Assembly: GCA_965224465.1 (NCBI GenBank)
Contig: OZ245049.1
Span: 3,870,001-3,902,000 of the forward strand
Reading direction: 5' to 3'
DNA: 32,000 bases
Source: Flavobacteriaceae bacterium
GTDB lineage: Bacteria > Bacteroidota > Bacteroidia > Flavobacteriales > Flavobacteriaceae
This document shows positions 2,235 to 32,000 of the stretch, piece by piece. The stretch's first letter is position 1. The number at the start of each line of letters is the position of its first letter. Position numbers and translations under genes: made by a program. A model generated the notes under the pieces. It was given only the letters and a program-made list of their open reading frames with translations. It did no database searches and was not told the DNA's origin.

Positions 2235-2242
2235 ATGTATTT

Positions 2243-2316
2243 ATACCAACTACATTTCCAAGTGACAGTTTAAAAACAACCTCTTAATATCGGTTATTTT
2301 GAATTGTATTTGGTAT
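2243..2316 (+). repeat. Intergenic hairpin repeat, short form (~74 bp)
   Basis: ataccaactacatttccaagtgacagttt...atcggttattttgaattgtatttggtat. The left and right arms are imperfect inverted complements. It belongs to the same family as the copies at 3842, 4004, 9780, 17167, 17925, 18373 and 23678-24001. Confidence 0.85.
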
Positions 2317-3720: not shown

Positions 3721-3841
3721 CTGATTGCTATTTATGTAAAGATAATTATTTTACGTAAAATTTACGTTTATTATTTAGATGATTTTCATCGAATTTAATT
3801 TTCAGAAATATTCTTTACTTTTAAGCAGGTGCTAAGTGTAC

Positions 3842-4002
3842 TACCAACTACATTTCCAAGTAACGGTTTAGAAATGGAATTATTTTTTGTTATAGCTAGG
3901 CGAAAAATGGAAGGATAGCCTTCGCTATGGTTCTGTTTTTTCAACAACGCTAGAACGTGAAATAACCTATTTATATCGGTTATTTTGGATTGTAGTTGGT
4001 AT
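3842..4002 (+). repeat. Intergenic hairpin repeat, long form (~160 bp), tandem copy 1
   Basis: Structure is taccaactacatttccaagtaacggtttagaaatgg... central module gctaggcgaaaaatggaaggatagccttcgctat...cgctagaacgtg ... atcggttattttggattgtagttggtat. Track ORF 3795..4010 lies inside it and is discounted. Confidence 0.9.
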
Positions 4003-4003
4003 A

Positions 4004-4164
4004 ATACCAACTACATTTTCAAATAATGGTTTAGAAATGGAATTATTTTTTGTTATAGCTAGGCGAAAAAGGGAAGGATAGCCTTCGCTATCGTTCTGTT
4101 TTTTAGCGACGCTAGAACGTGAAATCACCTATTTATATCGGTTATTTTGGATTGTAATGGGTGT
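4004..4164 (+). repeat. Intergenic hairpin repeat, long form, tandem copy 2
   Basis: Near-identical to 3842-4002 and follows it head-to-tail, separated only by about 1 nt. The right terminus is slightly degenerate (attgtaatgggtg). Confidence 0.9.
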
Positions 4165-7595: not shown

Positions 7596-9338
7596 ATGAA
7601 TATAGCTATCGAATTTAATGAAATAACAAAACGTTTGCCTAAGCATTTACACCCGTTTATAGTAAAACAACCTTATGAGGCTTACACGGCACAAAATCAA
7701 GCTGTCTGGCGTTATGTAATGCGAATGAATATGGATTATTTGGTAAAAGTAGCGCATGGGTCTTATTTAGTGGGGCTGGAGACTGCAGGGATCTCTTCCG
7801 AGGAAATACCTAGAATGGAAGGGATGAATAGGATTTTGAAAAATATTGGATGGGCGGCTGTGGCTGTTGATGGCTTTATTCCTCCCAATGCTTTTATGGA
7901 ATTTCAAGCCTATAATGTATTAGTAATTGCTTCTGATATACGTACGTTGGGGCATTTAGAATATACACCAGCACCAGATATTATTCACGAAGCGGCAGGG
8001 CATGCTCCCATTATAGCAAATCCAGAATATGCGGAGTATTTACGTCGTTTTGGTGAAATTGGAAGCAAAGCTATTTCTTCTGCAAAGGATTATGAAATGT
8101 ATGAGGCTGTGCGGAAATTATCTATTTTAAAAGAAGATCCCACAGTACCTAAAGAGGATGTGATAGCAGCACAAAGGGTAGTAGAAGCGTTGCAAGAGAA
8201 TGTGGGGGATTTGTCTGAAATGGCTCAAATTAGAAATTTACATTGGTGGACTGTAGAATATGGTTTGATTGGTGATTTGACGGATCCTAAGATTTATGGT
8301 GCTGGACTATTGTCCTCCATAGGGGAAAGTGAATGTTGCTTGAAAACTGAGGTGGAGAAATTACCCTATGATATTTCAGCGGCATATAAGAGTTTTGATA
8401 TAACCAAACCACAACCTCAATTATATGTAACGCCAAATTTTGCGCACTTAAGTTTTGTATTGGAAGAGTTTGCAAACAATATGGCCATTCGAAAAGGTGG
8501 TTTGTCTGGATTGCAAAAACTGGTAAAATCAGGAAATCTAGGGACGATAGAATTAAGTACGGGAATTCAAATTTCAGGGCTATTTACCAATGTGATTTCA
8601 CAAGAATTAAAACCCATTTATATTCAAACTACTGGTGCTACAGCTTTGGCGAGTAGAGATAAAGAACTCATAGGACATGGAGTGCTGGCTCATAAAGATG
8701 GATTTGGAAGCCCCATAGGAAAATTAAAAGGAATCAATCTAGCTATTGAGGATATGTCACCGAGAGATTTGGAAGTGTATGGAATTTGTGAAGGAAAAAA
8801 CGTGTGTTTAGAATTTGAAGGAGGTGTTAAGGTACAAGGAGATGTTATTACAGGGAAACGAGATTTACAAGGTAAAATAATATTGATCTCTTTTAAAAAC
8901 TGTACCGTTACTTATGGGGACATTGTATTGTTTGATCCTGCTTGGGGACTGTACGATATGGCAGTGGGTAAATCTGTGATTTCGGCATTTGCAGGCCCAG
9001 CATCTGTTCACTCTTTTGAAGGAGTTCAACAAGTTTCGGAGATTAAAACGCATAAGATTGAGTATTCTAAAAAGGATAAAATACTGTATAAATTATATGC
9101 CGAGGTAAGAGCCGTGAGGGCAGGGGAAGCCGCTGTAGATTGTTTAAAAAGAGTGTTTGACCAAGTTCAAAAAGAATATCCTTTGGATTGGTTATTGCCT
9201 TTGGAAATATATGAACTTATAGCAAAAGAAAACACGGTACTCTCTATGCGAGTAGCAAATCATTTAGATGCGCTGTCTTTGAAAAACGAATTCAAAAAAT
9301 TGATTTCAAATGGGTTGCAATTAATTTCTAATAGCTAA
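7596..9338 (+). CDS. Aromatic amino-acid hydroxylase (phenylalanine-4-hydroxylase-like), long form with ~280-aa C-terminal extension
   Basis: 580-aa ORF with biopterin-dependent hydroxylase motifs: PDIIHEAAGHAPI (two His iron ligands), HWWTVEYGL (Glu ligand) and YGAGLLSSIGE. The C-terminal half has no motif I recognise. Confidence 0.85.
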   Translation: MNIAIEFNEITKRLPKHLHPFIVKQPYEAYTAQNQAVWRYVMRMNMDYLVKVAHGSYLVGLETAGISSEEIPRMEGMNRILKNIGWAAVAVDGFIPPNAFMEFQAYNVLVIASDIRTLGHLEYTPAPDIIHEAAGHAPIIANPEYAEYLRRFGEIGSKAISSAKDYEMYEAVRKLSILKEDPTVPKEDVIAAQRVVEALQENVGDLSEMAQIRNLHWWTVEYGLIGDLTDPKIYGAGLLSSIGESECCLKTEVEKLPYDISAAYKSFDITKPQPQLYVTPNFAHLSFVLEEFANNMAIRKGGLSGLQKLVKSGNLGTIELSTGIQISGLFTNVISQELKPIYIQTTGATALASRDKELIGHGVLAHKDGFGSPIGKLKGINLAIEDMSPRDLEVYGICEGKNVCLEFEGGVKVQGDVITGKRDLQGKIILISFKNCTVTYGDIVLFDPAWGLYDMAVGKSVISAFAGPASVHSFEGVQQVSEIKTHKIEYSKKDKILYKLYAEVRAVRAGEAAVDCLKRVFDQVQKEYPLDWLLPLEIYELIAKENTVLSMRVANHLDALSLKNEFKKLISNGLQLISNS

Positions 9339-9779: not shown

Positions 9780-9857
9780 TTTTAAGTGCTGTTTTTTAAC
9801 AATGCTAGAACGTGAAATAACCTATTTATACCGATTATTTTGGATTGTAAATGGTAT
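9780..9857 (+). repeat. Intergenic hairpin repeat, medium/partial form
   Basis: ttaagtgctgttttttaacaatgctagaacgtgaaataacctatttataccgattattttggattgtaaatggtat. The left arm is degenerate. The truncated central module and the right arm are intact. Confidence 0.75.
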
Positions 9858-13927: not shown

Positions 13928-14899
13928 ATGGCAAAAGTAAAATATTATTATGACTCTGAAACCTTATCTTATCGAAAAATAAAGGATAAAAAGAGACACA
14001 AGTTTGCGAGATTAGGATTGACTATTGTTACAGCTGGTATTTTTATGGTACTTGGTTTTGTTGTGCTTACCCCTGTTTTTGAGTCGCCTAACGAAAAGAA
14101 ATTGAAACGAGAATTGGAATATGTAAAACTCAATGAAGAATTACATGGAAAAAAACTGGTTCAATTAGAAAAAGTTTTAGAAGATTTACAAGTAAGAGAT
14201 AACAATATTTACCGTGTTTATTTTGAATTGAATCCTATTTCAAATGATAAAAAGGCAGCAGGGTTTGGAGGAGTGAATCGGTATAAATCATTGGAAGGAT
14301 TTGATAATTCTGAAATGATAATTGGAGTTTCTAAGAACATGGATATTTTGGCAAAACAATTGTACATGCAGTCAAAATCCTTAGATGAAATTGTTAGTTT
14401 GGCAGAGAAAAAAGAAGAGTTATTAGCCGCTATGCCAGCAATCCAACCTGTTAGGAAAGAAAATTTGACACGCATGGCTTCTGGGTACGGATGGCGTTCT
14501 GACCCGTTTACAAAGGCTCGGAAAATGCATAAAGGAATGGATTTTACAGCTCCTAGAGGTACTCCTGTGTATGCCTCTGGTGATGGGGTAGTTGTGAGAG
14601 CTGATAATAATTCTAGTGGATATGGAAAACACATTCGTATAAATCACGGATTTGGCTATTTATCCTTGTACGCGCATTTAAGTAAATACAATACAGTAAA
14701 AGGAAAGCGTGTGAAACGTGGTGATTTAATCGGGTTTGTAGGGAATACAGGACGGTCTCAAGCACCTCATTTACATTATGAAGTACATAAAAATGGAAAG
14801 GCAATTAATCCTATCAATTTTTATTCAGGTAATTTAACTCCCGAAGAATTTGTGGCCATGCAAAAAGCAGCACAAATAGAAGGACAATCTTTAGACTAA
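13928..14899 (+). CDS. M23-family metallopeptidase
   Basis: 323-aa ORF with an N-terminal TM helix, a coiled-coil region, and LytM-type motifs HKGMDF, GYG..I.I.H and HLHYEV. Confidence 0.92.
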   Translation: MAKVKYYYDSETLSYRKIKDKKRHKFARLGLTIVTAGIFMVLGFVVLTPVFESPNEKKLKRELEYVKLNEELHGKKLVQLEKVLEDLQVRDNNIYRVYFELNPISNDKKAAGFGGVNRYKSLEGFDNSEMIIGVSKNMDILAKQLYMQSKSLDEIVSLAEKKEELLAAMPAIQPVRKENLTRMASGYGWRSDPFTKARKMHKGMDFTAPRGTPVYASGDGVVVRADNNSSGYGKHIRINHGFGYLSLYAHLSKYNTVKGKRVKRGDLIGFVGNTGRSQAPHLHYEVHKNGKAINPINFYSGNLTPEEFVAMQKAAQIEGQSLD

Positions 14900-16335: not shown

Positions 16336-17113
16336 TTGTTTAATAGTGCTTTCTTTTTTACTGCTTTTTACAAGTGCTATTTATGCACAAAATATACCCG
16401 AAAAACCTCGGTTTATTCCTGCGCTTATAGATAGTACAGGGACCTTAACTGCTGCTCAAAAAGTCAAGTTAGCGCTTAAATTAGAGCACTATAGCGATAC
16501 TACTTCTACACAAATGTTTTTGATGATTTTACCGTCTACCTATGGTGAAAATATTAATTTTTATGCTGCTGAGTTAGGGGATAAATGGGAGATAGGTCTT
16601 GGTGGAAAAGATAATGGAATACTTGTTTTAGTGGCTATAAACGATCGTAAAATCGCCATTTCTACTGGCTATGGCGTGGAGCATTTATTGACCGACGCCC
16701 TATCTCGTAGGATTATTGAAAATTCAATGTTACCTGAGTTTAAACAAGGTCGTTATTATGTGGGATTGGACAAAGGAATCGACGCTATTATTGAAGTGTT
16801 ACAAGGTGCTTATCAGGCAGATTCTGAAGAGGAAGTAAGTACTAAGTTTCCTGTCCAGTTACTTTTGATTGTCGGTTTTATCATTCTATTTATCCTTTTG
16901 GTGAAGAGAAATAAAAAAGGAGGTGGTGGCAATCATCGTACGAATCGCAAAGATTCCACAACTAGTTTGTTAGATGCAATTCTGTTAAGCGGAATGGGAC
17001 GTAGTAGTGGTGGTGCTTTTGGCAGCGGTGGTTTTGGTGGGAGTTCTGGAGGTTTCGGTGGTTTCGGTGGAGGCGGAGGCTTTGGAGGCGGAGGAGCTAG
17101 TGGAGGCTGGTAA
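16316..17113 (+). CDS. TPM-domain membrane protein (YgcG-like) with Gly-rich tail
   Basis: Signal peptide MKFRKDSCLIVLSFLLLFTSAIYA (alternative starts at 16295/16304). It also has a TPM core (NGILVLVAINDRKIAISTGYGVE), a TM helix, and the tail GGFGGSSGGFGGFGGGGGFGGGGASGGW. Confidence 0.85.
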   Translation: MKFRKDSCLIVLSFLLLFTSAIYAQNIPEKPRFIPALIDSTGTLTAAQKVKLALKLEHYSDTTSTQMFLMILPSTYGENINFYAAELGDKWEIGLGGKDNGILVLVAINDRKIAISTGYGVEHLLTDALSRRIIENSMLPEFKQGRYYVGLDKGIDAIIEVLQGAYQADSEEEVSTKFPVQLLLIVGFIILFILLVKRNKKGGGGNHRTNRKDSTTSLLDAILLSGMGRSSGGAFGSGGFGGSSGGFGGFGGGGGFGGGGASGGW

Positions 17114-17166
17114 CTTCTTTTTAAGAATGTAATTTATGCGGAGGTGTTGGAGTGGTTGGTAGAGAG

Positions 17167-17239
17167 CACTATGCGACTCAAGTGAAAGAAGCTTTGTGTA
17201 TAAACTATTTAAGCGGTCATTTCGAATTGTAATTGGTGT
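17167..17239 (+). repeat. Degenerate short-form copy of the intergenic hairpin repeat
   Basis: cactatgcgactcaagtgaaag...aactatttaagcggtcatttcgaattgtaattggtgt aligns by eye to both arms of the family consensus with many substitutions. Confidence 0.4.
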
Positions 17240-17397
17240 AAAACCTAGCTCCATGCTCAACTTTATTTTTTCAGGAGTGCTTCTCTCTTTTTTAATCTTT
17301 ATACAAACGTGTTTTCTGCATTTTCTAACATGATAAATAACAGTGTTCTTGGTAGAAATAACACTTAATTTTAAGTTTAATTTTTAGCACATAACAA

Positions 17398-17946
17398 ATG
17401 TTAGACTCGTATATAGAATTTGTAAAATCATACCCGTTAATCAGTGCTATGTTACAGTTTTCTGTCCTTGGAACGGTTGGGGATTTAATAGCGAAATGCC
17501 TTCAGAAAGAGGTGTTTTTTATGCCGTATTCTATGCGTATCTTATTGTTAAAAATGTTAGAATGGGCATTGTTAGCGCTATGTATTAAGTATGCTTTTGT
17601 CGGTTTTCAGGGATTTGTAGATGGGTTATTACTGCATGGAATGATTCCTGATTTGGGTGTTTTTGGACGTGCATTTGCTGTTTCTTTGTGTATGAATTTA
17701 CAATTTGGATTGCTATTGGTGATTTTACATCGGTATTTAGACAACCTTATAGCAAGAGAAAATAACTGGGGTAATTTAGATAAAGGAATGAAATCTTTAG
17801 TCTGGTTTTGGATTCCTGCACATACCATCACTTTTATGCTAGACAAGCCATATCAAATTGGCTTAGCAGCATTATGGTCTGTGGTTTTGGGTGTTATTTT
17901 GGGCTATTATAATAGATCAAGTACAAGCAAATGCATTTCCAAGTGA
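17398..17946 (+). CDS. Hypothetical multi-pass membrane protein
   Basis: 182-aa ORF with about 5 hydrophobic helices and no motif I recognise. The last ~7 codons and the stop lie inside a repeat copy. Confidence 0.6.
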   Translation: MLDSYIEFVKSYPLISAMLQFSVLGTVGDLIAKCLQKEVFFMPYSMRILLLKMLEWALLALCIKYAFVGFQGFVDGLLLHGMIPDLGVFGRAFAVSLCMNLQFGLLLVILHRYLDNLIARENNWGNLDKGMKSLVWFWIPAHTITFMLDKPYQIGLAALWSVVLGVILGYYNRSSTSKCISK

Positions 17947-18033
17947 CGGTTTAGAAATGGAATTATTTTTTGTTTTAACAATGCTAGAACGTAACCCAAA
18001 CTATTTATATCGGTTATTTTGGATTGTAATTGA
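17925..18033 (+). repeat. Intergenic hairpin repeat, medium form (~105 bp)
   Basis: ...atgcatttccaagtgacggtttagaaatggaattattttttgttttaacaatgctagaacgtaacccaaactatttatatcggttattttggattgtaattg. Track ORF 17891..18079 lies within it and is discounted. Confidence 0.8.
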
Positions 18034-18372
18034 ATTATTAGGGGATGCAAGAGTTTTTATCCTTGGAAAAAAGGAATAGTTAGCAATTTTTAGGTTTTTT
18101 CTTCTAGAGAATCCAACAACTGTCTGTACTCAATCTTATTTGTATTAGTTGTTTTTTTTAGTGCTATTAAGTGCTATGATGATCCGAGGTTAGGCTAAAG
18201 GATAGAGAATCATTCTTTTGGATGTATAGCAGGTGTATTTAGGATGGGTTTGTTGATTCAGAAAAACAGGATTCAGCTATTTTCTTTGTTTGTAAAGGTG
18301 TTTTTTAATAAAATTACAACATTTTATTGGGAGTTTTTTAAGAGTACGTCCCTTACATTTGTACTGTAATAC

Positions 18373-18443
18373 GAAATACATTTCCAAGTGACGGTTTAAA
18401 AAATAAACTATTTGTCTCTGTTATTTTGGATTGGAATTGGTAT
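18373..18443 (+). repeat. Intergenic hairpin repeat, short form
   Basis: gaaatacatttccaagtgacggtttaaaaaataaactatttgtctctgttattttggattggaattggtat. Confidence 0.8.
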
Positions 18444-23360: not shown

Positions 23361-23433
<73 letters not shown>

Positions 23434-23442
23434 CTAAGCGGA

Positions 23443-23474
23443 AAGCTTCATCATAAAGATGGAGCTTTTTTTTT
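23443..23474 (+). terminator. Rho-independent terminator after the tRNA
   Basis: Stem agcttcatc / gatggagct (one G-U pair) followed by a 9-nt T-run. Confidence 0.7.
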
Positions 23475-23677
23475 GTCCATTATTTGCCTTTATAATAATC
23501 GAAGCTATCATCCCTTTTTTTTTATTCCTCTTGATTCATTTTTTACGCACCTATATTTTTTTTACGGGTATTTGTAGGTACTTCGCTCCTCTAAATAATA
23601 AATAAAATAAAAGGTTTTTAAGATGTGGTTTTTTAGGTGAAAAACACTTATTAAAAACCATGCTCAAAAATGCGCAT

Positions 23678-23730
23678 TATACCAACTTCATTTCCAGGTG
23701 ACAGTTTGTAAATGGAATTATTTTTTATTC
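23678..23730 (+). repeat. Hairpin repeat, left arm only (outer copy, 5' part)
   Basis: tataccaacttcatttccaggtgacagtttgtaaatggaattattttttattc stops where the central module would begin. Confidence 0.75.
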
Positions 23731-23891
23731 TACCAATTAAATTTCCAAGTGACGGTTTAGAAATAGAATTACTTTTTTGTTCTAGCTAGGCGGAAAATGG
23801 AAGGATAGCCTTAGCTATCGTTCTGTTTTTCAACAACGCTAGCACGTAAAATAGACTATTTATATCTGTCATTTTGGATTTTAATTGGTAG
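23731..23891 (+). repeat. Hairpin repeat, full long form (inner copy)
   Basis: taccaattaaatttccaagtgacggtttagaaatag...gctaggcggaaaatggaaggatagccttagctatcg...cgctagcacgt...tatctgtcattttggattttaattggtag. Confidence 0.85.
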
Positions 23892-24001
23892 TATAGCTAG
23901 GCGAAAAATCTTAGGGTAGCCATTAGCGATCGTTCTATTTCTATCAACGCTAGAACATATAATAAACTATTTAGATCTGTTATTTTGTATTGTAGTTGGT
24001 T
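23892..24001 (+). repeat. Hairpin repeat, central module plus right arm (outer copy, 3' part)
   Basis: tatagctaggcgaaaaatcttagggtagccattagcgatcg...cgctagaacat...atctgttattttgtattgtagttggtt. Joined to 23678-23730 it reconstitutes a full long-form copy. Confidence 0.75.
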
Positions 24002-24351
24002 GTACGTAACGAATTATAGTTTTAAGCGATAAAAACAGCTCCTAAAAAGTATCTAGTTCTGAATTATATTTTTTCCATGCATTGCCATCTTAAGGTAACG
24101 GTTTTTAAGGAGTACAAAAAAAGGAAAACACAACCAAATAATAATTATCGCATATAACTATTTTACGTACATTTGAAAAATGCTTTAGGTATGTGCAGAT
24201 AAATACTAATACCCAAATGCTACAACATCCCACGCAATAGAATGCACCATCATATTTGGGGCTGCTATTGTGGGAGCATGAGTGTTCTAGGTAATTTGAC
24301 TCACTCAAAATGTATAAACGAAACAGAAAACCAACTAGAAAATAGAAAATT

Positions 24352-25050
24352 ATGGCAGGAAAACCAGCAGCAACTGTAGGAAGTAATCATTCTTGCCCAA
24401 TGTGTAGTGGTATTACGCCGCACGTTGGTGGTCCGATTACTCAAGGCTCTCCAGATGTTTTTATTAATGATAAACCAGTGGCTCGTATCGGGGATATATG
24501 TACTTGTAATGGAGGTCCAGATACCATTGTGACAGGGAATTCAACCGTGTTAATTAATGGATTACCTATTGCTTGTGTAGGTGATCAAACTTCTCACGGG
24601 GCTGTTATAATTTCGGGCTCTTCTAACGTTATTATCGGAAGTAGAACCTCTAAGCCTGCAACCGCAGTGATGGCAGTAAAAAAAATACCTTTCCCTAAAA
24701 TCACATTTATAAACAGAGTTTTGGGTAATGCAAAAGAAGCGATTGTGAATCAGCAAGCCATAAGAGAATTAGCAGAAAACACAGAAGGCGAACCTAGAGT
24801 GTACAATTTACGTTGGCGTAGAGAAGAAACCATTATACGAGATCGTAAAATTTTTAATATGGTGATTTTAACTGCTGACGTAATTAATATCCCTGACGGT
24901 CAGGCAGCTACTGTCAAAGTATTAAAGCCTTCGAGCAACGGAAATGAAGAAGATCAAGTTGTTGAACTTACAGGAACTGTTAAAAATAAAAGAATTACCG
25001 TAGAATGGGAATTGGAAGACGCGAGTGCTAACGAAAACAGCAATAACTAA
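24352..25050 (+). CDS. PAAR-domain protein with ~130-aa C-terminal extension
   Basis: 232-aa ORF whose first ~98 aa carry three PAAR-type repeats (KPAATVGS, KPVARIGD, LPIACVGD) with Cys/His (HSCPMC, CTC, SHG). The remainder has no recognisable motif. Confidence 0.88.
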   Translation: MAGKPAATVGSNHSCPMCSGITPHVGGPITQGSPDVFINDKPVARIGDICTCNGGPDTIVTGNSTVLINGLPIACVGDQTSHGAVIISGSSNVIIGSRTSKPATAVMAVKKIPFPKITFINRVLGNAKEAIVNQQAIRELAENTEGEPRVYNLRWRREETIIRDRKIFNMVILTADVINIPDGQAATVKVLKPSSNGNEEDQVVELTGTVKNKRITVEWELEDASANENSNN

Positions 25051-25053
25051 ACT

Positions 25054-28000
25054 ATGGAAAGAAACAAGGCTCTCGAAACTTACCAAAAAGAAGCTTACAA
25101 TCAAGATCTAGCTACCTATACTTTTACAGTAGAAGTAGCAGGGAAGACATCTGATGAACGAGCAGAATTAAAAGTGAAAAAACCAGGTATTAATTTACAC
25201 TTTTTAAGGTATGGTATTTTTAGTCCACGATGGTATTATAAAACATCTTTTATTGATGTACATGCTCCAAATCTAAGTAAACCCTACGAACCTTTTCCCG
25301 TAGATAATGATCCTGAACTTATAAACCCCAACGACCCCATAGAACTTGATGAGGTTTTTGTAACAGCTGAAAGAAAAGTTCCTGCTCCATCAAGTAAAGC
25401 AAGTAAACTAAATACAGCACAGTATCGAATTACAGGAATCAATGAAGGTTATATTTATGTTCACGAAGAAGGTAAAGAAAACTTTTGGTTAGAATTTGCT
25501 GTAGATATTTATGGTTTTTTGCATCCTATTTTATGGGAACAAAATATAAATAAAGATGGAACATATAAAGATATAAGAGAGAAAATAAGTGATAAAAATC
25601 TTACCTCATACATCATAAAGGAAGGTGCAAAAATATGGGTTACATTATCTCAATCTCAATTGTCTACAAAACAATTACAAGAATATGCTAATAATCCAGA
25701 TAATTTTGATAGGCTACAATCCTTAACTTGTAATCCCATTGAAAAAATATCTGATTTAACAGAACGTAAAGAAAAATGCTATAGGTCCTTTAAAGAATTT
25801 ACTGCCTCATATACTGTTTATGAAGAAGACAATGCTAAAATATTACAATCTAGATTAGAACATATTTCAAAATTAGAATATCCTGAAAATAGAGAAGAAG
25901 AAGATGCTACCTTTGAAGACCTGTTTATTCTTTTAGAAGACCCCGTACAGTGTGCTAATGATTTAGCTACCGTTATTGATGGAGAAATGGCATGGTTAAA
26001 AGCTTTGAAGGATACTTTAAAAATAGGGAAATCTGCTTATGACGTGTATGATAAATTAATGAAGTTACCTGTTTATAATAATAGTACTATTAAAGTATCG
26101 CCAGAAGAAGCCGAAGAAATTAGCTATATTTTTGCATTAGCACTTACTACCTATAAGTTTATTTATGATAATGAAGAATTAAAAGACGATTTTAGTCGAA
26201 AACATGGTGAATGGTATTTAAATCGTGGCATAGATGACGAAAAACTAGACAAAATATTAGGGATTACACAGCGTAAAAATCAGCGTTGCCTAATCAATAA
26301 ATTGCGTGATGATTTAGGTAATTTTTTGAAAAGTGAGTATTATAACACTGCACTTAATGACTTTAAGCAAGGGTCATACCCAATGAAAGAAAGTGGTAAA
26401 GATATTATTGCTGGTCATTTAGGAACACTAGTAGTACACCCTACTATGGTAGATAGGCATTTATTGCTAACCAGTGAATACAAACCCTACGAAGATAAAT
26501 GGATAAAACAAGTACGTAAAACCATTACAGGGAATAGTGATTTTACAGCAATAAATGAACTTTTAAATATCCGTATTCCTATTAATGAGGTTGAACAACA
26601 AGATAGCAATGCTAATATTTATGCAGTCAAATTTTGTAAAAAATTCTTAAGCCATTTTGGTAAAATGACCAAAGCGTACATTGGGGTTGGCGCATTAAGT
26701 GCTACCGAAATTAAATTGGTAGACACTAAAGTAAACTATTTAAATTCCATTTCTAAAGGTGGAAAAGAAGGTCCTTTTTTTAAGATAAACCGCAAAGATT
26801 TTTTAAGAACTGCTGGTTTTGAAAAATATAAAAAGTACAGAAGTAGCAGTCACAACCACTTTACTAAAACCTATGCTTTTTTAAAAATACATGAAGAGGT
26901 ATTAAAAGAAAGTAAAGATATTGCACGTAGAACAGGTTTGGGAAAAGAAACTTCCATTGTGGTACAAGGGCGTGATCGTTTGAAGTTTTCTAAACAGCTA
27001 GAAAAAATGGTGCAAAGCCCTGAGTATAAATCGGCAGTACTCGTTTTTGAAATTTGGGCGCTTATCTCTTCTGTAGAGAAAGGAAATAAAAATGGATGGG
27101 GTTTAAATTCGAAAATAAGCCTTGGAGGAGCAATTGTAAAAACTACTGCGTCGAGTTTGAAGCTAGTTGAAGAATTTGATAAAATAAGAGGAATACAAAG
27201 AACCGATTTATTTAAAACTACAACTAAATATTTTAGTGTGGCAGGTTCCGCTTTTACAGTCTATTCAGCAACCAAAGATATGGTAAAAGCAATAAATGTC
27301 AATGATAATGATGCTGCATTGGCTTATAGTGTAGCTGCAGGGATTAGTGGGTGTTTATTAGCGGCAGAATTAGGCATTATAGCTCTTTCTACAGGGCCAT
27401 TTATTGTAGTAGCAGGTATTGGGATGCTGGTCTATGGTTTAGCTTATTATTTAACCGATAGTGATTTGGAACAATTTTTTAAGCATTACCCTTTTAGTAC
27501 CCAAATGACACATGCTACTACAAGTGATAATCCTTTTTTGTATGCGCGTGCAATGTATAAGCAACGTGATATACTTATTAAACGTTGGGAGTCTAAATAT
27601 ATGGATAGTAATAATAATACATACAAGCATCTTTTTGTAAGACTCACTAATTTATTAGCTGGAGGTATGCTTAAAATAGAAGGTAGTTCAAATCCACACT
27701 CTAAAAATGATAGAGGACATTATTTAAGTGAATCCGGGAGAAATAATGGAATTGTTCCAAATTCAGAGCTTTGGATTTCTATGGATATCCAAATCTCTTT
27801 TGCATCCTTTTTGCAAAACCAAAATCAAATTGAATATGAAGTGTACTTACTACAGAAAAAAGACCTTTTTTCTAAAACCATAAGTTACCGTATTCCCAAT
27901 AGAAAATTACAACCCTTTATGATAAAAAAAGATAATGGGACGCAACAACTGCAATTATGGTTACAAATCCCTAGATACTTAGAAGTTAAAGTTACAACAC

Positions 28001-28287
28001 CTGTAAAACAATCTGCCAATATTTCGGTTATGCTACAACAAACCCGTAAAACTACTAAAAAAGTAACTATACAACCAGATGCGAAAATTGCAGTATTGTG
28101 CAAATTTAAAGGGAATACAGAAACAATTTTCCCTTTAACACTAGACGATAAACACGGATATTTATACACCGCTATGCAAATAGGACAACGTAATGGTGAT
28201 GGTTATTTAATCCGTCGTTCTTTTGATGCCATGATTATTAAAAAAGAAGCCTTTTTAAATGCCTACCCACTTCAAAACCCTAAGTAA
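25054..28287 (+). CDS. Large putative T6SS-delivered effector, predicted membrane-targeting; function unknown
   Basis: 1077-aa ORF starting 3 nt after the PAAR stop. Hydrophobic helices cluster at aa ~660-800, including AALAYSVAAGISGCLLAAELGIIALSTGPFIVVAGIGMLVYGLAYYL. I could find no nuclease, lipase (GxSxG), peptidase or glycosidase motif. The N-terminal YRITGINEGYIYVHEEG...WLEF segment is reminiscent of VasX/BTH_I2691-class effectors, from memory and unverified. Confidence 0.75.
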   Translation: MERNKALETYQKEAYNQDLATYTFTVEVAGKTSDERAELKVKKPGINLHFLRYGIFSPRWYYKTSFIDVHAPNLSKPYEPFPVDNDPELINPNDPIELDEVFVTAERKVPAPSSKASKLNTAQYRITGINEGYIYVHEEGKENFWLEFAVDIYGFLHPILWEQNINKDGTYKDIREKISDKNLTSYIIKEGAKIWVTLSQSQLSTKQLQEYANNPDNFDRLQSLTCNPIEKISDLTERKEKCYRSFKEFTASYTVYEEDNAKILQSRLEHISKLEYPENREEEDATFEDLFILLEDPVQCANDLATVIDGEMAWLKALKDTLKIGKSAYDVYDKLMKLPVYNNSTIKVSPEEAEEISYIFALALTTYKFIYDNEELKDDFSRKHGEWYLNRGIDDEKLDKILGITQRKNQRCLINKLRDDLGNFLKSEYYNTALNDFKQGSYPMKESGKDIIAGHLGTLVVHPTMVDRHLLLTSEYKPYEDKWIKQVRKTITGNSDFTAINELLNIRIPINEVEQQDSNANIYAVKFCKKFLSHFGKMTKAYIGVGALSATEIKLVDTKVNYLNSISKGGKEGPFFKINRKDFLRTAGFEKYKKYRSSSHNHFTKTYAFLKIHEEVLKESKDIARRTGLGKETSIVVQGRDRLKFSKQLEKMVQSPEYKSAVLVFEIWALISSVEKGNKNGWGLNSKISLGGAIVKTTASSLKLVEEFDKIRGIQRTDLFKTTTKYFSVAGSAFTVYSATKDMVKAINVNDNDAALAYSVAAGISGCLLAAELGIIALSTGPFIVVAGIGMLVYGLAYYLTDSDLEQFFKHYPFSTQMTHATTSDNPFLYARAMYKQRDILIKRWESKYMDSNNNTYKHLFVRLTNLLAGGMLKIEGSSNPHSKNDRGHYLSESGRNNGIVPNSELWISMDIQISFASFLQNQNQIEYEVYLLQKKDLFSKTISYRIPNRKLQPFMIKKDNGTQQLQLWLQIPRYLEVKVTTPVKQSANISVMLQQTRKTTKKVTIQPDAKIAVLCKFKGNTETIFPLTLDDKHGYLYTAMQIGQRNGDGYLIRRSFDAMIIKKEAFLNAYPLQNPK

Positions 28288-29018
28288 TGAGTGATTTTTG
28301 GAAAAATAAACCTTTAGAAAAGGAGATACGTCATCAAATAGAGTATCACCAAATAAAACAAGAACGAATAAAGCCTAGTAAACGTTTAAATATACAAGAA
28401 GCAAATGACCTATTTTTTGTTAGGAATGTATCTAGTAATATGGGCTATGCCAAGATAAATTTTTTAACAGGTGTAGGTATTAATTTTATTATTATATTAG
28501 TTTCTCTAGGAAATGAAAAAGATGACCTTTTTGAGAATATAGGCTTAGGACTACTACCTTTCTTATTAATAAGCCTTATTTTTCTAATCATACATTTTAT
28601 GGCGCCAATAAAAGAAATAATATTAGACCGTTTACATGGCAAAATAACGTATCCTCGTTTGTTTGGTAATAAAGAACATCGTACCATACAATTTGATTCG
28701 TTGCACGTGTATGCTACTATGACCACCACTGGTGATTTTGCTGCGACAGGAAAAACAATACGTATTAAAGACAGAAAGTACAGTTATACGTGGGATTTAG
28801 AAAGTAGTAATCCAGATGAATATTGGAGTTTTATGGTGTGGTATATGGATAGGAACAGACCATTGCCTCCTGGTACTGCTTTTGATGCGTATAGGAAAAA
28901 GGACTTTGAGCGCAGAAAAACCGCTGGATTTCCTAAGCCTTTATATCCAAGCAATATAGCAACACCTGAATTTACCAAATCGCAACAAAAAGAACGGAAA
29001 TTAATTGGAGGATGGTAA
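28287..29018 (+). CDS. Putative cognate immunity protein, two-TM (paralog 1)
   Basis: 243-aa ORF whose ATG overlaps the effector stop (TAATG). Two hydrophobic helices sit at aa ~58-75 and ~85-105. The conserved C-terminal ~135 aa has no recognised motif. The immunity role is inferred from position only. Confidence 0.7.
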   Translation: MSDFWKNKPLEKEIRHQIEYHQIKQERIKPSKRLNIQEANDLFFVRNVSSNMGYAKINFLTGVGINFIIILVSLGNEKDDLFENIGLGLLPFLLISLIFLIIHFMAPIKEIILDRLHGKITYPRLFGNKEHRTIQFDSLHVYATMTTTGDFAATGKTIRIKDRKYSYTWDLESSNPDEYWSFMVWYMDRNRPLPPGTAFDAYRKKDFERRKTAGFPKPLYPSNIATPEFTKSQQKERKLIGGW

Positions 29019-29027
29019 TAAAATCGC

Positions 29028-29235
29028 ATGCAAAAATTGCCGTATTATGTAAGTTTAAAGGAAATACAGAAACTATTTTTCCTTTAACATTAGACGATAA
29101 GCAGGGTATTTATACACCGCTATGCAAATAGAACAACGCAATGGTGATGGTTATTTAATTCGTCGTTCTTTTGATGCCATGATTGTCAAAAAAACAGCCT
29201 TTTTAAATGCCTACCCACTTCAAAACCCAGAATAA
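29028..29235 (+). pseudogene. Orphan effector 3' fragment, frameshifted
   Basis: Homologous to 28078-28287 (last ~70 codons of the effector). A 1-nt deletion (gataagcagggtattt versus gatgagcacgggtattt in the next unit) breaks the frame. Confidence 0.8.
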
Positions 29236-29966
29236 TGAGTGATTTTTGGAAAAACAAACCTTTAGAAAAAGTGATACGTCACCAAATAGAGTATCACCAA
29301 ATAAAACAAGAGCGAGTAATACCAAACAAGCGCTTAGAAATACAAGAGGCAAATGACCTGTTTTTCGTAAAAAATGTATCAAGTTATATTTCTGGAGCTA
29401 AGTTGTATTTTTTTTTAGGTTTGGGTATAGTTATATTTGTTTATTTGATTACAATAGGCATGCCTAAAGAAAAAATATCATTTCCTCGATATTTAGGGTT
29501 GATTCCTTTTTTATGTATAAGTCTTATCTATTTGATTATGCATTATATGGCGCCAATAAAAGAAATAATATTAGACCGTTTACATGGCAAAATAACGTAT
29601 CCTCGTTTGTTTGGAAATAAAGAACATCGTACCATACAATTTGATTCGTTGCACGTGTATGCTACCATGACCACCACTGGTGATTTTGCTGCGACAGGAA
29701 AAACAATACGCATTAAAGACAGAAAGTACAGTTATACATGGGATTTAGAAAGTAGTAATCCAGATGAATATTGGAGTTTTATGGTGTGGTATATGGATAG
29801 GAACAGACCATTGCCTTCTGGTGCTGCTTTTGATCCGTATAGGAAAAAGGACTTTGAGCGCAGAAAAACTGCGGGATTTCCTAAGCCTTTATATCCAAGC
29901 AATATAGCAACACCTGAATTTACCAAAGCGCAACAAAAAGAACGGAAATTAATTGGAGGATGGTAA
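29235..29966 (+). CDS. Putative immunity protein paralog 2
   Basis: 243-aa ORF. Its C-terminal half is near-identical to paralog 1, its N-terminal ~44 aa are moderately conserved, and aa ~45-105 are divergent. Confidence 0.7.
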   Translation: MSDFWKNKPLEKVIRHQIEYHQIKQERVIPNKRLEIQEANDLFFVKNVSSYISGAKLYFFLGLGIVIFVYLITIGMPKEKISFPRYLGLIPFLCISLIYLIMHYMAPIKEIILDRLHGKITYPRLFGNKEHRTIQFDSLHVYATMTTTGDFAATGKTIRIKDRKYSYTWDLESSNPDEYWSFMVWYMDRNRPLPSGAAFDPYRKKDFERRKTAGFPKPLYPSNIATPEFTKAQQKERKLIGGW

Positions 29967-30184
29967 TAAAATTGCATGCAAAAATTGCCGTATTATGTAA
30001 GTTTAAAGGAAATACAGAAACTATTTTTCCTTTAACACTAGATGATGAGCACGGGTATTTATACACCGCTATGCAAATAGAACAACGCAATGGTGATGGT
30101 TATTTAATTCGTCGTTCTTTTGATGCCATGATTGTCAAAAAAACAGCCTTTTTAAATGCCTACCCACTTCAAAACCCAGAATAA
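29960..30184 (+). other. Orphan effector C-terminal fragment, open 74-codon ORF
   Basis: MVIKLHAKIAVLCKFKGNTETIFPLTLDDEHGYLYTAMQIEQRNGDGYLIRRSFDAMIVKKTAFLNAYPLQNPE matches the last ~70 aa of the 1077-aa protein. The ATG arises from the gga-tgg-taa end of paralog 2. Expression is doubtful. Confidence 0.5.
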
Positions 30185-30563
30185 TGAGTGATTTTTGGAA
30201 AAACAAACCTTTAGAAAAAGTGATACGTCACCAAATAGAGTATCATCAAATAAAACAAGAACGTATAAAACCTAATAAACGCCTAGAGATACAAGAAGCT
30301 AACGATCAATTTTTTGTAACAAATGAAACAGAAGCATTAACCGCTTTTTGGTGCTATTTTAGTATGGGTGTGGGAGGGGTGTTTTTTTTAATTATCGTAC
30401 AATACTTTGGTGTTGGGTTTGTTAATATGGTTACTTTATGGATAGGATTACCTTTTGTTTTATTAGCTTTATTTCATTTAATCATATTCTTTTTAGTACC
30501 AATAAAAGAAATAATATTAGACCGTTTACATGGCAAAATAACGTATCCTCGTTTGTTTGGTAA
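30184..30563 (+). pseudogene. Immunity paralog 3, 5' part, disrupted by IS30-family insertion
   Basis: Reads MSDFWKNKPLEKVIRHQ...ITYPRLFG and then runs into the IS (KLNSSHKRNF stop, track ORF 30184..30594). Confidence 0.85.
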
Positions 30564-31688
30564 GCTGAATTCAAGTCACAAACGCAACTTTTAGTTAAAT
30601 AATAATTGTTCCATTACAAATATAGGGTTTTGATATTTATGTCTCTTCCTAGGTCTGTTATTTAATTTTGTTTCTACCTCTTTGATTCTTTGATCTGTTA
30701 GGTTTGTAAAGTCACTTCCTTTGGCAAAATATTGTCTAATCAAACCATTTAAATTTTCGTTAGATCCTCTTTCCCAAGAGTGATATGGATGCGCAAAAAA
30801 GTAATCAATACATAAATTTTCTGCAACCTGCTCATGGCCTGCAAATTCTTTTCCATTATCAGCTGTTATAGTATGTAGATAAGGCTTCCAGTCTTCTAAT
30901 ATTTCATTGATAGCTTTAGTGACAACAACTGCTTCTTTAGAGCTTACTTTTTTCATTTTAAGCATTCCAGAAGCTCTATCATTTACGGTAAGTATGGCTT
31001 GATTATGGTTTTTACCTATGATTAAATCGACCTCTAAATCTCCAAATCGATTTCTTTGTTCAACAACTTCAGGGCGTTGTTCTATACTAATACGATTCTT
31101 TATAACCCCTCTAGAATCCTTTGATGAGCCACGTTTTCTATATCTCCTTCCCTGTCTGCGAAGGTGTGTATGTAAATCACCATCATTCCTCTTGTCTTCC
31201 CTAATATGCTGATATATACGCTCAATAGACACCGTTTCTTTACCTTGTTTTTTTAGGACACCAACTACTTGCTCAGGACTATAATCGTCTCGCAATAACA
31301 ACTCTATTGCTTGTTGAATATCTTCTGTAAAGCGTTTTCTTTTAGGCTTTTCTTTATGACGTTTAGCATACTTTTTTTGGGCTAATTCATGCTTGTAAAC
31401 TCCATTTCTTTTGTCTGAATTACGCTTAATCTCTTTGCTAATAACAGACTTGTCTTTTCCTATAGCAGCTGCTATCTCAACCTGTTTATAACCTTGTTTT
31501 AACATGCAACAAATTGTGTATCTTTGCGCTTGGGTGATGTGTTTCATACAACTTCTTTTTTCGAGATTTGAGACCGTAAGATACATATCCATCAAGACAA
31601 GAAAGGTAGGTTTTCCTACTTTTCTGTTTTGAAAATATAACCATCATAGAATCAAATCGAAAAGTTGCGTTTATTAGTTGAATTTAAG
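30564..31688 (-). mobile_element. IS30-family insertion sequence (1125 bp)
   Basis: Imperfect 29-bp terminal inverted repeats: gctgaattcaagtcacaaacgcaactttt at the left end and aaaagttgcgtttattagttgaatttaag at the right end, 23/29 matching. TAA is duplicated at 30561-30563 and 31689-31691. Removing the IS and one TAA restores ...ttt ggt aat aaa gag cat..., the sequence of the intact paralogs. Confidence 0.9.
30591..31547 (-). CDS. IS30-family transposase
   Basis: The N-terminal HTH is MKHITQAQRYTICCMLKQGYKQVEIAAAIGKDKSVISKEIKRNS and a DDE-type catalytic core follows (DLIIG...TADNGKEF...SWERGSNEN). The track ORF extends to 31595, but I prefer the ATG at 31547. Confidence 0.88.
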   Translation of the reverse strand: MKHITQAQRYTICCMLKQGYKQVEIAAAIGKDKSVISKEIKRNSDKRNGVYKHELAQKKYAKRHKEKPKRKRFTEDIQQAIELLLRDDYSPEQVVGVLKKQGKETVSIERIYQHIREDKRNDGDLHTHLRRQGRRYRKRGSSKDSRGVIKNRISIEQRPEVVEQRNRFGDLEVDLIIGKNHNQAILTVNDRASGMLKMKKVSSKEAVVVTKAINEILEDWKPYLHTITADNGKEFAGHEQVAENLCIDYFFAHPYHSWERGSNENLNGLIRQYFAKGSDFTNLTDQRIKEVETKLNNRPRKRHKYQNPIFVMEQLLFN

Positions 31689-32000
31689 TAATAAAGAGCA
31701 TCGTACCATACAATTTGATTCGTTGCACGTGTATGCTACCATGACCACCACTGGCGATTTTGCTGCGACAGGAAAAAAAATACGCATTAAAGACAGAAAG
31801 TACAGTTATACATGGGATTTAGAAAGTAGTAATCCAGATGAATATTGGAGTTTTATGGTGTGGTATATGGATAGGAACAGGCCATTGCCTCCTGGTACTG
31901 CTTTTGATCCGTATAGGAAAAAGGACTTTGAGCGCAGAAAAACCGCGGGATTTCCTAAGCCTTTATATCCAAGCAATATAGCAACACCTGAATTTACCAA
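31689..32000 (+). pseudogene. Immunity paralog 3, 3' part (continues past window end)
   Basis: In-frame continuation NKEHRTIQFDSLHVYATMTTTGDFAATGKKIRIKDRKYSYTWDLESSNPDEYWSFMVWYMDRNRPLPPG..., near-identical to paralogs 1 and 2. Confidence 0.85.

Follow-up and report, generated by a model that had tools for sequence, protein, structure and literature searches.

What is a gene for a PAAR spike tip doing just after a tRNA gene, followed by a very large open reading frame (ORF) and by several copies of a smaller gene, apart from the core genes of any type VI secretion system (T6SS)? This question is raised by the right-hand part of a stretch of 32,000 nucleotides (nt) from a Flavobacteriaceae bacterium (GenBank assembly GCA_965224465.1, contig OZ245049.1, positions 3,870,001 to 3,902,000), called the window below. 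The answer proposed here, to which a probability of about 85% is given, is that this island is an auxiliary (“orphan”) effector module of a T6SS of type iii, T6SS(iii), whose toxin belongs to the VasX/BTH_I2691 family. Among characterised systems, the paar-bte2-bti2 module of Bacteroides fragilis GA3 comes nearest to it.

It should be emphasized that a preliminary description, made from the letters of the window alone, had already recognised a T6SS effector/immunity cassette headed by PAAR and containing several immunity genes, lying apart from T6SS core genes inside the window, and that this part stands. The same description saw in it an uncharacterised toxin/immunity system, with no assignable motif in any of its three protein types. 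This view has to be abandoned, as all three types are assignable: the PAAR protein to 8gra_J over its full length, the toxin to PF20249 and Tke5, the immunity proteins, distantly, to bfi2_fam. Furthermore, experimental work of 2025 characterised the toxin of the Bacteroidota branch of the family (Bte2/Bti2) as a pore former (PMC12718326). The cassette is therefore known in kind and does not reveal a new type of system. Its interest lies in an apparently exchangeable immunity hairpin, in a constant PAAR partner that would replace Tap, and in the variable tRNA-Met site in which it is found.

The PAAR protein and its large effector

The PAAR protein matches PF05488 with 93.4 bits (cut-off 27). 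The PAAR domain itself covers residues ~20-96 and is followed by a conserved C-terminal extension of ~130 amino acids (aa). The best sequence match in the PDB is 8gra_J, a B. fragilis protein of 222 aa described as “Type VI secretion system spike protein Paar” (E=5.7e-42), and the match spans residues 5-222, extension included. The PAAR of 8GRA is the one belonging to Bte2 (PMC13402684). As 8gra_J aligns over the full length, the C-terminal extension is no novelty of this locus. The protein thus combines a PAAR domain with the likeness to a spike-borne PAAR that marks a T6SS spike tip.

The large ORF encodes, at residues 113-217, a VasX_N (MIX) domain (PF20249, 41.9 bits for a gathering score of 27), and its residues 648-817 match the “T6SS effector BTH_I2691 family” model NF041559 (E=2.6e-16). 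In addition, a profile of ten homologues (A1) matches the MIX domain of Ptx2 (9qpv_A, E=1.6e-5). Three MIX motifs are conserved across the whole family: LHFLRYG, TxLNxGYxYI (GYxY) and AYSxVQWS (YSxxQWS). An exhaustive profile search led to 317 representative proteins at E<=0.001, including 124 at E<=1e-30, and a second word-index search with profile A1 gave no further proteins. Among close homologues, residues 661-720 form a hypervariable patch with ~50% identity, compared with ~80% elsewhere.

The fold of the toxin was predicted with AlphaFold2 (AF2) from 70 sequences, with a predicted local distance difference test score (pLDDT) of 75.7 and a predicted TM-score (pTM) of 0.74; a version based on 10 sequences (pLDDT 44.7) was set aside. 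According to DSSP, the model consists of a beta-rich part (aa 18-253), a long helical part (255-869) and a second beta-rich part (871-1062). When it is compared with the PDB using Foldseek, the sole fold match with E<=0.001 is Tke5, a pore-forming toxin of P. putida (9r8g_A, E=2.6e-9, probability 1.00), the 1184 aligned columns covering the whole length at an identity of ~11%. For the C-terminal part, the same comparison gave Ig-domain matches that are sub-significant only. Besides the MIX domain, the predicted model would thus provide a helical scaffold with hydrophobic helices, a C-terminal Ig-like domain and a fold like that of a solved member of the VasX/BTH_I2691/Bte2 family. This three-part architecture was reported for Ptx2 (bioRxiv 10.1101/2025.04.30.651342), Tke5 (PMC12909789) and Bte2 (PMC12718326), the latter being described by Ratner et al. 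as a divergent VasX-family pore former active from the periplasm (PMC12718326).

The proposal that the PAAR gene, the 1077-aa ORF and the first 243-aa ORF are packed as an operon is borne out by the ORF list and by the junction sequences: 3 nt separate PAAR from the toxin, and the toxin stop codon TAA shares one base with the imm1 start codon ATG (TAATG). The cassette genes are real and not chance ORFs, because they have homologues and because the ratio of non-synonymous to synonymous substitution rates (dN/dS) relative to the closest locus is 0.09-0.17 overall (0.16 for PAAR and 0.16 for the toxin). Judging from these ratios, all of them are under purifying selection. The features of the island and of its left flank are collected in Table 1.

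Table 1. Features of the tRNA-Met flank and of the effector/immunity island, with positions in the window.
Feature	Position	Strand	Details
tRNA-Met (CAT)	23361-23434	+	ARAGORN; Rfam tRNA 64.9 bits; conserved in L030, L032, L033
Terminator-like hairpin (23440-23470) and T-run	23440-23473	+	Terminator scan; left island boundary
Tandem copies of dispersed repeat	23676-24004		51 nt x2 and 111 nt x2; TRF
PAAR spike-tip gene	24352-25050	+	232 aa; ORF list
VasX/BTH_I2691/Bte2-family effector gene	25054-28287	+	1077 aa; predicted pore-forming (membrane-depolarising)
Toxin MIX domain, beta-rich	25105-25812	+	aa ~18-253; Pfam, DSSP of model
Toxin alpha-helical scaffold	25816-27660	+	aa ~255-869; DSSP, hydropathy, NF041559
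Toxin hypervariable patch	27034-27213	+	aa 661-720; sliding identity
Toxin hydrophobic helices	27310-27459	+	aa ~753-802; hydropathy
Toxin C-terminal beta-rich (Ig-like) domain	27664-28239	+	aa ~871-1062; DSSP, pLDDT mostly 80-90
imm1	28287-29018	+	243 aa; cognate-position immunity gene
Toxin 3'-end relic 1, start of unit 2	29027-29235	+	Last ~70 codons, frameshifted by 1-nt deletion; repeat family D1
imm2	29235-29966	+	243 aa; orphan immunity gene
Toxin 3'-end relic 2, start of unit 3	29960-30184	+	Still open 74-aa frame; ORF list, alignment
imm3, 5' part	30184-30563	+	Third hairpin type; cut by IS element past codon ~126
IS30-family insertion sequence (IS)	30564-31687	-	1124 bp; splits imm3
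imm3, 3' part	31688-32000	+	Conserved C-terminal domain; continues past window end

Comparison with 29 related loci places the module in a wider family. These loci come from Tenacibaculum, Aquimarina, Olleya, Hyunsoonleella, Spongiivirga and other Flavobacteriaceae, as well as from a Marinilabiliaceae metagenome-assembled genome (MAG), an Ancylomarina isolate and one unclassified Bacteroidetes MAG. The order PAAR (~235 aa), toxin, immunity is found in 25 of the 29, with one to at least eight immunity genes after the toxin. In 11 related loci, a TssD-type Hcp (PF17642) and a VgrG (TIGR01646) are encoded directly upstream of the cassette, which ties the family to the T6SS. This adjacency, a feature of auxiliary T6SS modules, is not seen upstream of the cassette in the window; in the same way, the cassettes of L001, L002, L011/L027 and L020 stand alone, with neither Hcp nor VgrG within 10 kb. 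The known reach of the Bte2/VasX pore-former family, together with a PAAR of its own and Bti2-like immunity proteins, is thereby widened from gut Bacteroidales to marine Flavobacteriaceae and some Marinilabiliales.

The likeness to variable region 2 of B. fragilis GA3 (8GRA PAAR, Bte2/Bfe2, Bti2/Bfi2) concerns the whole module: a PAAR gene, a large toxin gene and one or several membrane immunity genes follow each other in the same order. The PAAR proteins are homologous over their full length, the toxin has the architecture described for Bte2 (PMC12718326), and the immunity proteins are remote relatives of bfi2_fam; NCTC9343 also has two immunity genes, Bti2a and Bti2b (PMC13035841). Unlike its counterpart, the module of the window lies outside any T6SS cluster, beside a tRNA gene and in a marine flavobacterium, and relics of the toxin 3' end separate its immunity copies. 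Bte2 was shown to depend on Rnf, a requirement reportedly confined to gut Bacteroidales (PMC12718326).

The pairs VasX-TsiV2, Tke5-Tki5 and Ptx2-Pti2 of Proteobacteria share with the window the MIX domain (PF20249), the helical scaffold with buried hydrophobic helices and the Ig-like domain, and a membrane immunity protein is likewise encoded downstream of the toxin. In contrast to these systems, the window harbours no Tap (DUF4123) adaptor; instead, the gene ahead of the toxin always encodes a PAAR extended at its C-terminus. The delivery machine would also differ, being a T6SS(iii) and not a T6SS(i).

Other PAAR arrangements occur among the related loci. In some Tenacibaculum and Aquimarina, the PAAR protein is lengthened to 537-651 aa (L014 7590-9991, L022 7579-9971, L023 7586-9978, L029 7443-9777), and a gene of 125-260 aa without family match, which may encode an accessory or loading factor, lies between PAAR and toxin. 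In L013 (4373-7615), L018 (514-3756) and L025 (17446-20625), the hcp-vgrG island that holds the cassette also carries a second gene, for a much larger PAAR-fused protein of 1059-1080 aa, followed by small conserved ORFs (cluster c20); these are probably separate PAAR-toxin/immunity pairs.

The immunity array and its mosaic genes

According to hydropathy, the 243-aa proteins have two hydrophobic helices; in the product of imm1, encoded directly downstream of the toxin, these predicted transmembrane segments cover aa ~54-75 and 80-114, and the C-terminal domain is conserved. The imm1 protein matches NF053700 (bfi2_fam) with E=0.005, and the same model is matched by 31 of the 54 family members from related loci (best E=6.2e-7). 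On this profile evidence, the 243-aa proteins are distant relatives of Bfi2/Bti2 and not equivalogs.

Direct repeats and alignments reveal that the array is made of three tandem units of ~948 bp, each composed of a toxin 3' end (the last ~210 nt) and an immunity gene. This organization would have arisen by tandem duplication of such a unit, an origin that forms part of the explanation proposed here. The third gene, opened by a 136-aa ORF (30184-30594), is interrupted by an insertion sequence, beyond which frame 1 of its 3' part reads NKEHRTIQFDSL...PEFT (repeat family D2). The inserted element has all the attributes of the IS30 family: a transposase of 334 aa encoded on the minus strand (30591-31595; NF033563, 290.7 bits for a cut-off of 80), imperfect terminal inverted repeats of 25 nt that are 88% complementary (I5), and a target duplication, GTAA being present on both sides and the immunity reading frame being restored. 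The insertion looks recent, because the interrupted imm3 frame is otherwise intact.

Orphan toxin fragments are also found between immunity genes of other genomes. They encode 188-305 aa and are located at 12046-12963 in L018, where the fragment aligns to residues 743-1045 of the window toxin, and at 14306-14872, 16873-17637 and 19755-20327 in L029. The tandem units of the window, in which a toxin 3' fragment and an immunity gene are repeated downstream of the full-length toxin, recall the orphan toxin-tip/immunity arrays of Rhs/CdiA and the acquired immunity clusters of Bacteroidales, and the larger fragments of L018 and L029 resemble Rhs/CdiA modules. In both cases, orphan immunity genes fit the toxin alleles of other genomes. 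The relics of the window differ from those of Rhs/CdiA arrays in that they correspond to the last ~70 codons of the toxin, i.e., to part of the Ig-like domain and not to the toxic part; furthermore, variation is found in a segment of ~65 codons that encodes the hairpin and not in whole immunity genes.

This variation has a sharply segmented pattern. Within codons 46-110, which encode the membrane hairpin, imm1 and imm2 are separated by a synonymous divergence (dS) of 1.15 and a non-synonymous divergence (dN) of 0.42; over codons 111-243 they share 97% DNA identity (dS 0.078), and over codons 1-45, 86% (dS 0.94). Between imm2 and L001.1, the first, cognate-position immunity gene of L001, the hairpin codons 46-110 share 96% DNA identity (dS 0.13) and the flanks outside the hairpin have a dS of ~1 (codons 111-243). 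Other hairpin types also recur between genomes: beside W.2 and L001.1 (95%), L001.2, L004.3 and L005.1 are mutually 82-94% alike, and L003.1 corresponds to L004.4 (71%). The immunity genes are mosaics, with hairpin types of ~65 codons common to several genomes. Orphan immunity genes match cognate-position genes of other genomes, and this fits protection against toxin alleles of non-kin.

Judging from the mosaic, it is probably the membrane hairpin that determines specificity. A broader proposal can be made tentatively, and is doubtful as a whole: the hairpin would be a discrete specificity cassette exchanged horizontally, the rest of each immunity gene being homogenised within its genome while hairpin types are common to several, and the C-terminal extension of the Bacteroidota PAAR, not Tap, would recruit the MIX domain. 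If this were true, immunity arrays would be libraries directed against non-kin alleles of VasX-family toxins, and hairpin exchange would give a natural map of the sites by which immunity protein and toxin recognise each other.

Proposed mechanism and rival explanations

From homology, the following course of events can be proposed for the module, which would depend on a T6SS of this genome. The PAAR protein would cap a trimer of VgrG, the gene for which would lie in another part of the genome, and the toxin would be attached to this spike by the MIX domain at its N-terminus. As a Tap/DUF4123 adaptor is lacking, the loading partner would probably be the conserved C-terminal extension of PAAR, or VgrG. 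After firing into the periplasm of a neighbour, the helical scaffold would open and the hydrophobic helices (aa ~750-800) would enter the inner membrane, forming an ion-conducting pore through which the membrane potential would collapse. The 243-aa proteins would act as inner-membrane immunity proteins, imm1 being the putative cognate one; imm2 and imm3 would be orphan variants, most likely directed against other toxin alleles brought by competitors, and the hairpin segment of these mosaic genes would behave as an exchangeable specificity cassette. The whole module lies at a variable site, right behind the terminator of the tRNA-Met gene.

Several observations weigh against this interpretation. 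The existence of T6SS core genes in this genome is an assumption, and Pfam scans of 20 upstream ORFs found none for Hcp, VgrG, the sheath (TssB/C) or a DUF4123 adaptor in positions 1-24351 of the window, as the preliminary description had noted for these 24 kb. The likeness of the toxin to Bte2 is one of architecture, taken from the published description of Bte2. The score of the toxin with NF041559 is 59.3 bits, under the curated cut-off of 150; this shortfall, shared by nine of the nine sampled relatives, all of which do match the model, places the toxin in a divergent branch outside the curated proteobacterial subfamily model. The TM-scores with Tke5 are low (0.30-0.34), so that the similarity demonstrated is at the level of topology only, although they could reflect open versus closed conformations. 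The 243-aa proteins reach 16.4 and 19.8 bits with NF053700, far under its cut-off of 350. Finally, covariation of the toxin patch (aa 661-720) with the hairpin of the cognate immunity protein is not significant (rho 0.44, p=0.10, n=15 pairs), and no co-evolution is therefore claimed.

Could the island be mainly defensive? The T6SS core genes missing from the 24 kb upstream, and the loci L001, L002, L011/L027 and L020 in which Hcp and VgrG are likewise missing within 10 kb, would suit a genome devoid of a working T6SS, which would have kept its Bti2-like array against the VasX-family toxins of its neighbours, PAAR and toxin being leftovers. Three immunity copies with three hairpin types, and an imm2 hairpin that fits the cognate immunity of another genome's toxin, go in the same direction. 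Such a role is nevertheless unlikely, as the supposed leftovers are intact, tightly coupled and constrained (dN/dS 0.16), the IS element disrupts an immunity gene and not the toxin, and the PAAR-toxin-immunity order is kept across 25 loci.

It is very improbable that the cassette serves another contractile injection machine than a T6SS(iii), for example an extracellular contractile injection system. PAAR-type tips are common to such machines, and SalCis10 is the second-best PDB sequence match of the PAAR domain (9rce_c, E=2e-16), but the best full-length match, extension included, is the T6SS PAAR of B. fragilis. Moreover, the cassette follows the TssD-type Hcp and VgrG in 11 related loci, and the MIX domain is a marker of T6SS effectors (10.1101/2025.04.30.651342).

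The very low identity to all characterised members (~11% with Tke5 when the structures are aligned), scores under the curated NCBIfam cut-offs and a receptor need that may differ from that of Bte2 (Rnf dependence being reportedly confined to gut Bacteroidales, PMC12718326) might suggest an uncharacterised type of toxin/immunity pair that acts in a new way. This is scarcely credible in view of the Pfam MIX match above threshold, of a three-part architecture equal to that of the known family, of Tke5 as the only significant fold match and of PAAR and immunity proteins homologous to the partners of Bte2.

The tRNA-Met flank and the neighbouring genes

The place occupied by this putative T6SS(iii) effector module was compared with the same era/tRNA-Met flank in three relatives, L030, L032 and L033, the latter being a metagenome contig whose Era is 95.6% identical. 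The AlaRS of the window shares 90-92% identity with those of Flavobacteriaceae MAGs and only 74% with that of Lutibacter, the nearest named genus, and the idea that the bacterium is an Aquimarina was rejected on this ground. By blastn and alignment, the three relatives keep the gene order of the window as far as position 23473, where the tRNA terminator ends, and diverge past the T-run, L030 and L032 being also unlike each other beyond this point. Homologues of PAAR, toxin and immunity genes are absent beyond it in the 2.3 kb read in L030 and the 8.9 kb read in L033; L032 was read for only 0.6 kb past the divergence. In their place, L030 (1-2267) carries an ISL3 transposase remnant and a cold-shock gene, and L033 (3384-12315) a gene for an SH3-domain protein, ORFs without assignment and a Fic/DOC protein gene. 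Synteny up to the terminator, followed by divergence, indicates that the island is variable. It is thus not part of the core genome: three relatives with the same flank lack the cassette at this site, which looks, from these sequences, like an insertion hot spot.

The island resembles tRNA-linked islands in this variable occupancy. It does not share their other hallmarks within the window, where no integrase gene was found in 23435-32000 and the tRNA 3' end is nowhere repeated in att-like fashion; the right-hand end of the island falls beyond the window. Among the related loci, era adjoins the cassette in none of 29 and a tRNA gene in none of 24.

In two Tenacibaculum loci, MobC, the Bacteroidetes coupling protein, is encoded just upstream of the cassette (L003 7200-9188, NF041326 with 1118 bits; L005 7205-9193), and in L007, an Aquimarina MAG, an ORF of the same cluster as MobC (14-1978) is located ~7 kb upstream of it. 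This suggests carriage on integrative conjugative elements. The module travels as a self-contained unit, found at times behind hcp-vgrG, at times beside a conjugative MobC gene and, in the window, at a variable tRNA site.

The non-coding spacer between the tRNA gene and PAAR had been described as repeat-rich and ~890 bp long. The repeats are confirmed by Tandem Repeats Finder (TRF), while the length has to be corrected to 917 nt (23435-24351). An Rfam scan of this spacer found nothing beyond the tRNA, and a scan for sigma-70 promoters gave sites no commoner than in shuffled sequence. Homology with the leader of the L001 cassette starts at 24339, and by blastn the spacer repeats have no similarity to the leaders of related cassettes.

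An assignment of the spacer repeats to the island was rejected, as blastn detected the same repeat at five further sites of the window (2241-2314, 3841-4162, 9786-9856, 17928-18032 and 18370-18442). The repeat units measure ~50-160 nt, are 80-93% alike and often occur as tandem pairs, and one of them holds a GC-rich hairpin (23804-23819). They resemble an element of this genome of the repetitive extragenic palindromic (REP) or miniature inverted-repeat transposable element (MITE) kind.

Of 20 ORFs scanned upstream of the island, all belong to housekeeping-type families according to Pfam, except for two without match. These families include OmpA, sulfatase, iPGM, AlaRS, M23 peptidase, LemA/TPM, Der and Era, and in the syntenic region of the relatives ORFs of similar length are predicted at similar places. 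One of the upstream ORFs, of 580 aa (7596-9338), matches the biopterin-dependent aromatic amino-acid hydroxylase family at residues 26-153 only; its length far exceeds that of the domain segment matched, and it is conserved in L030.

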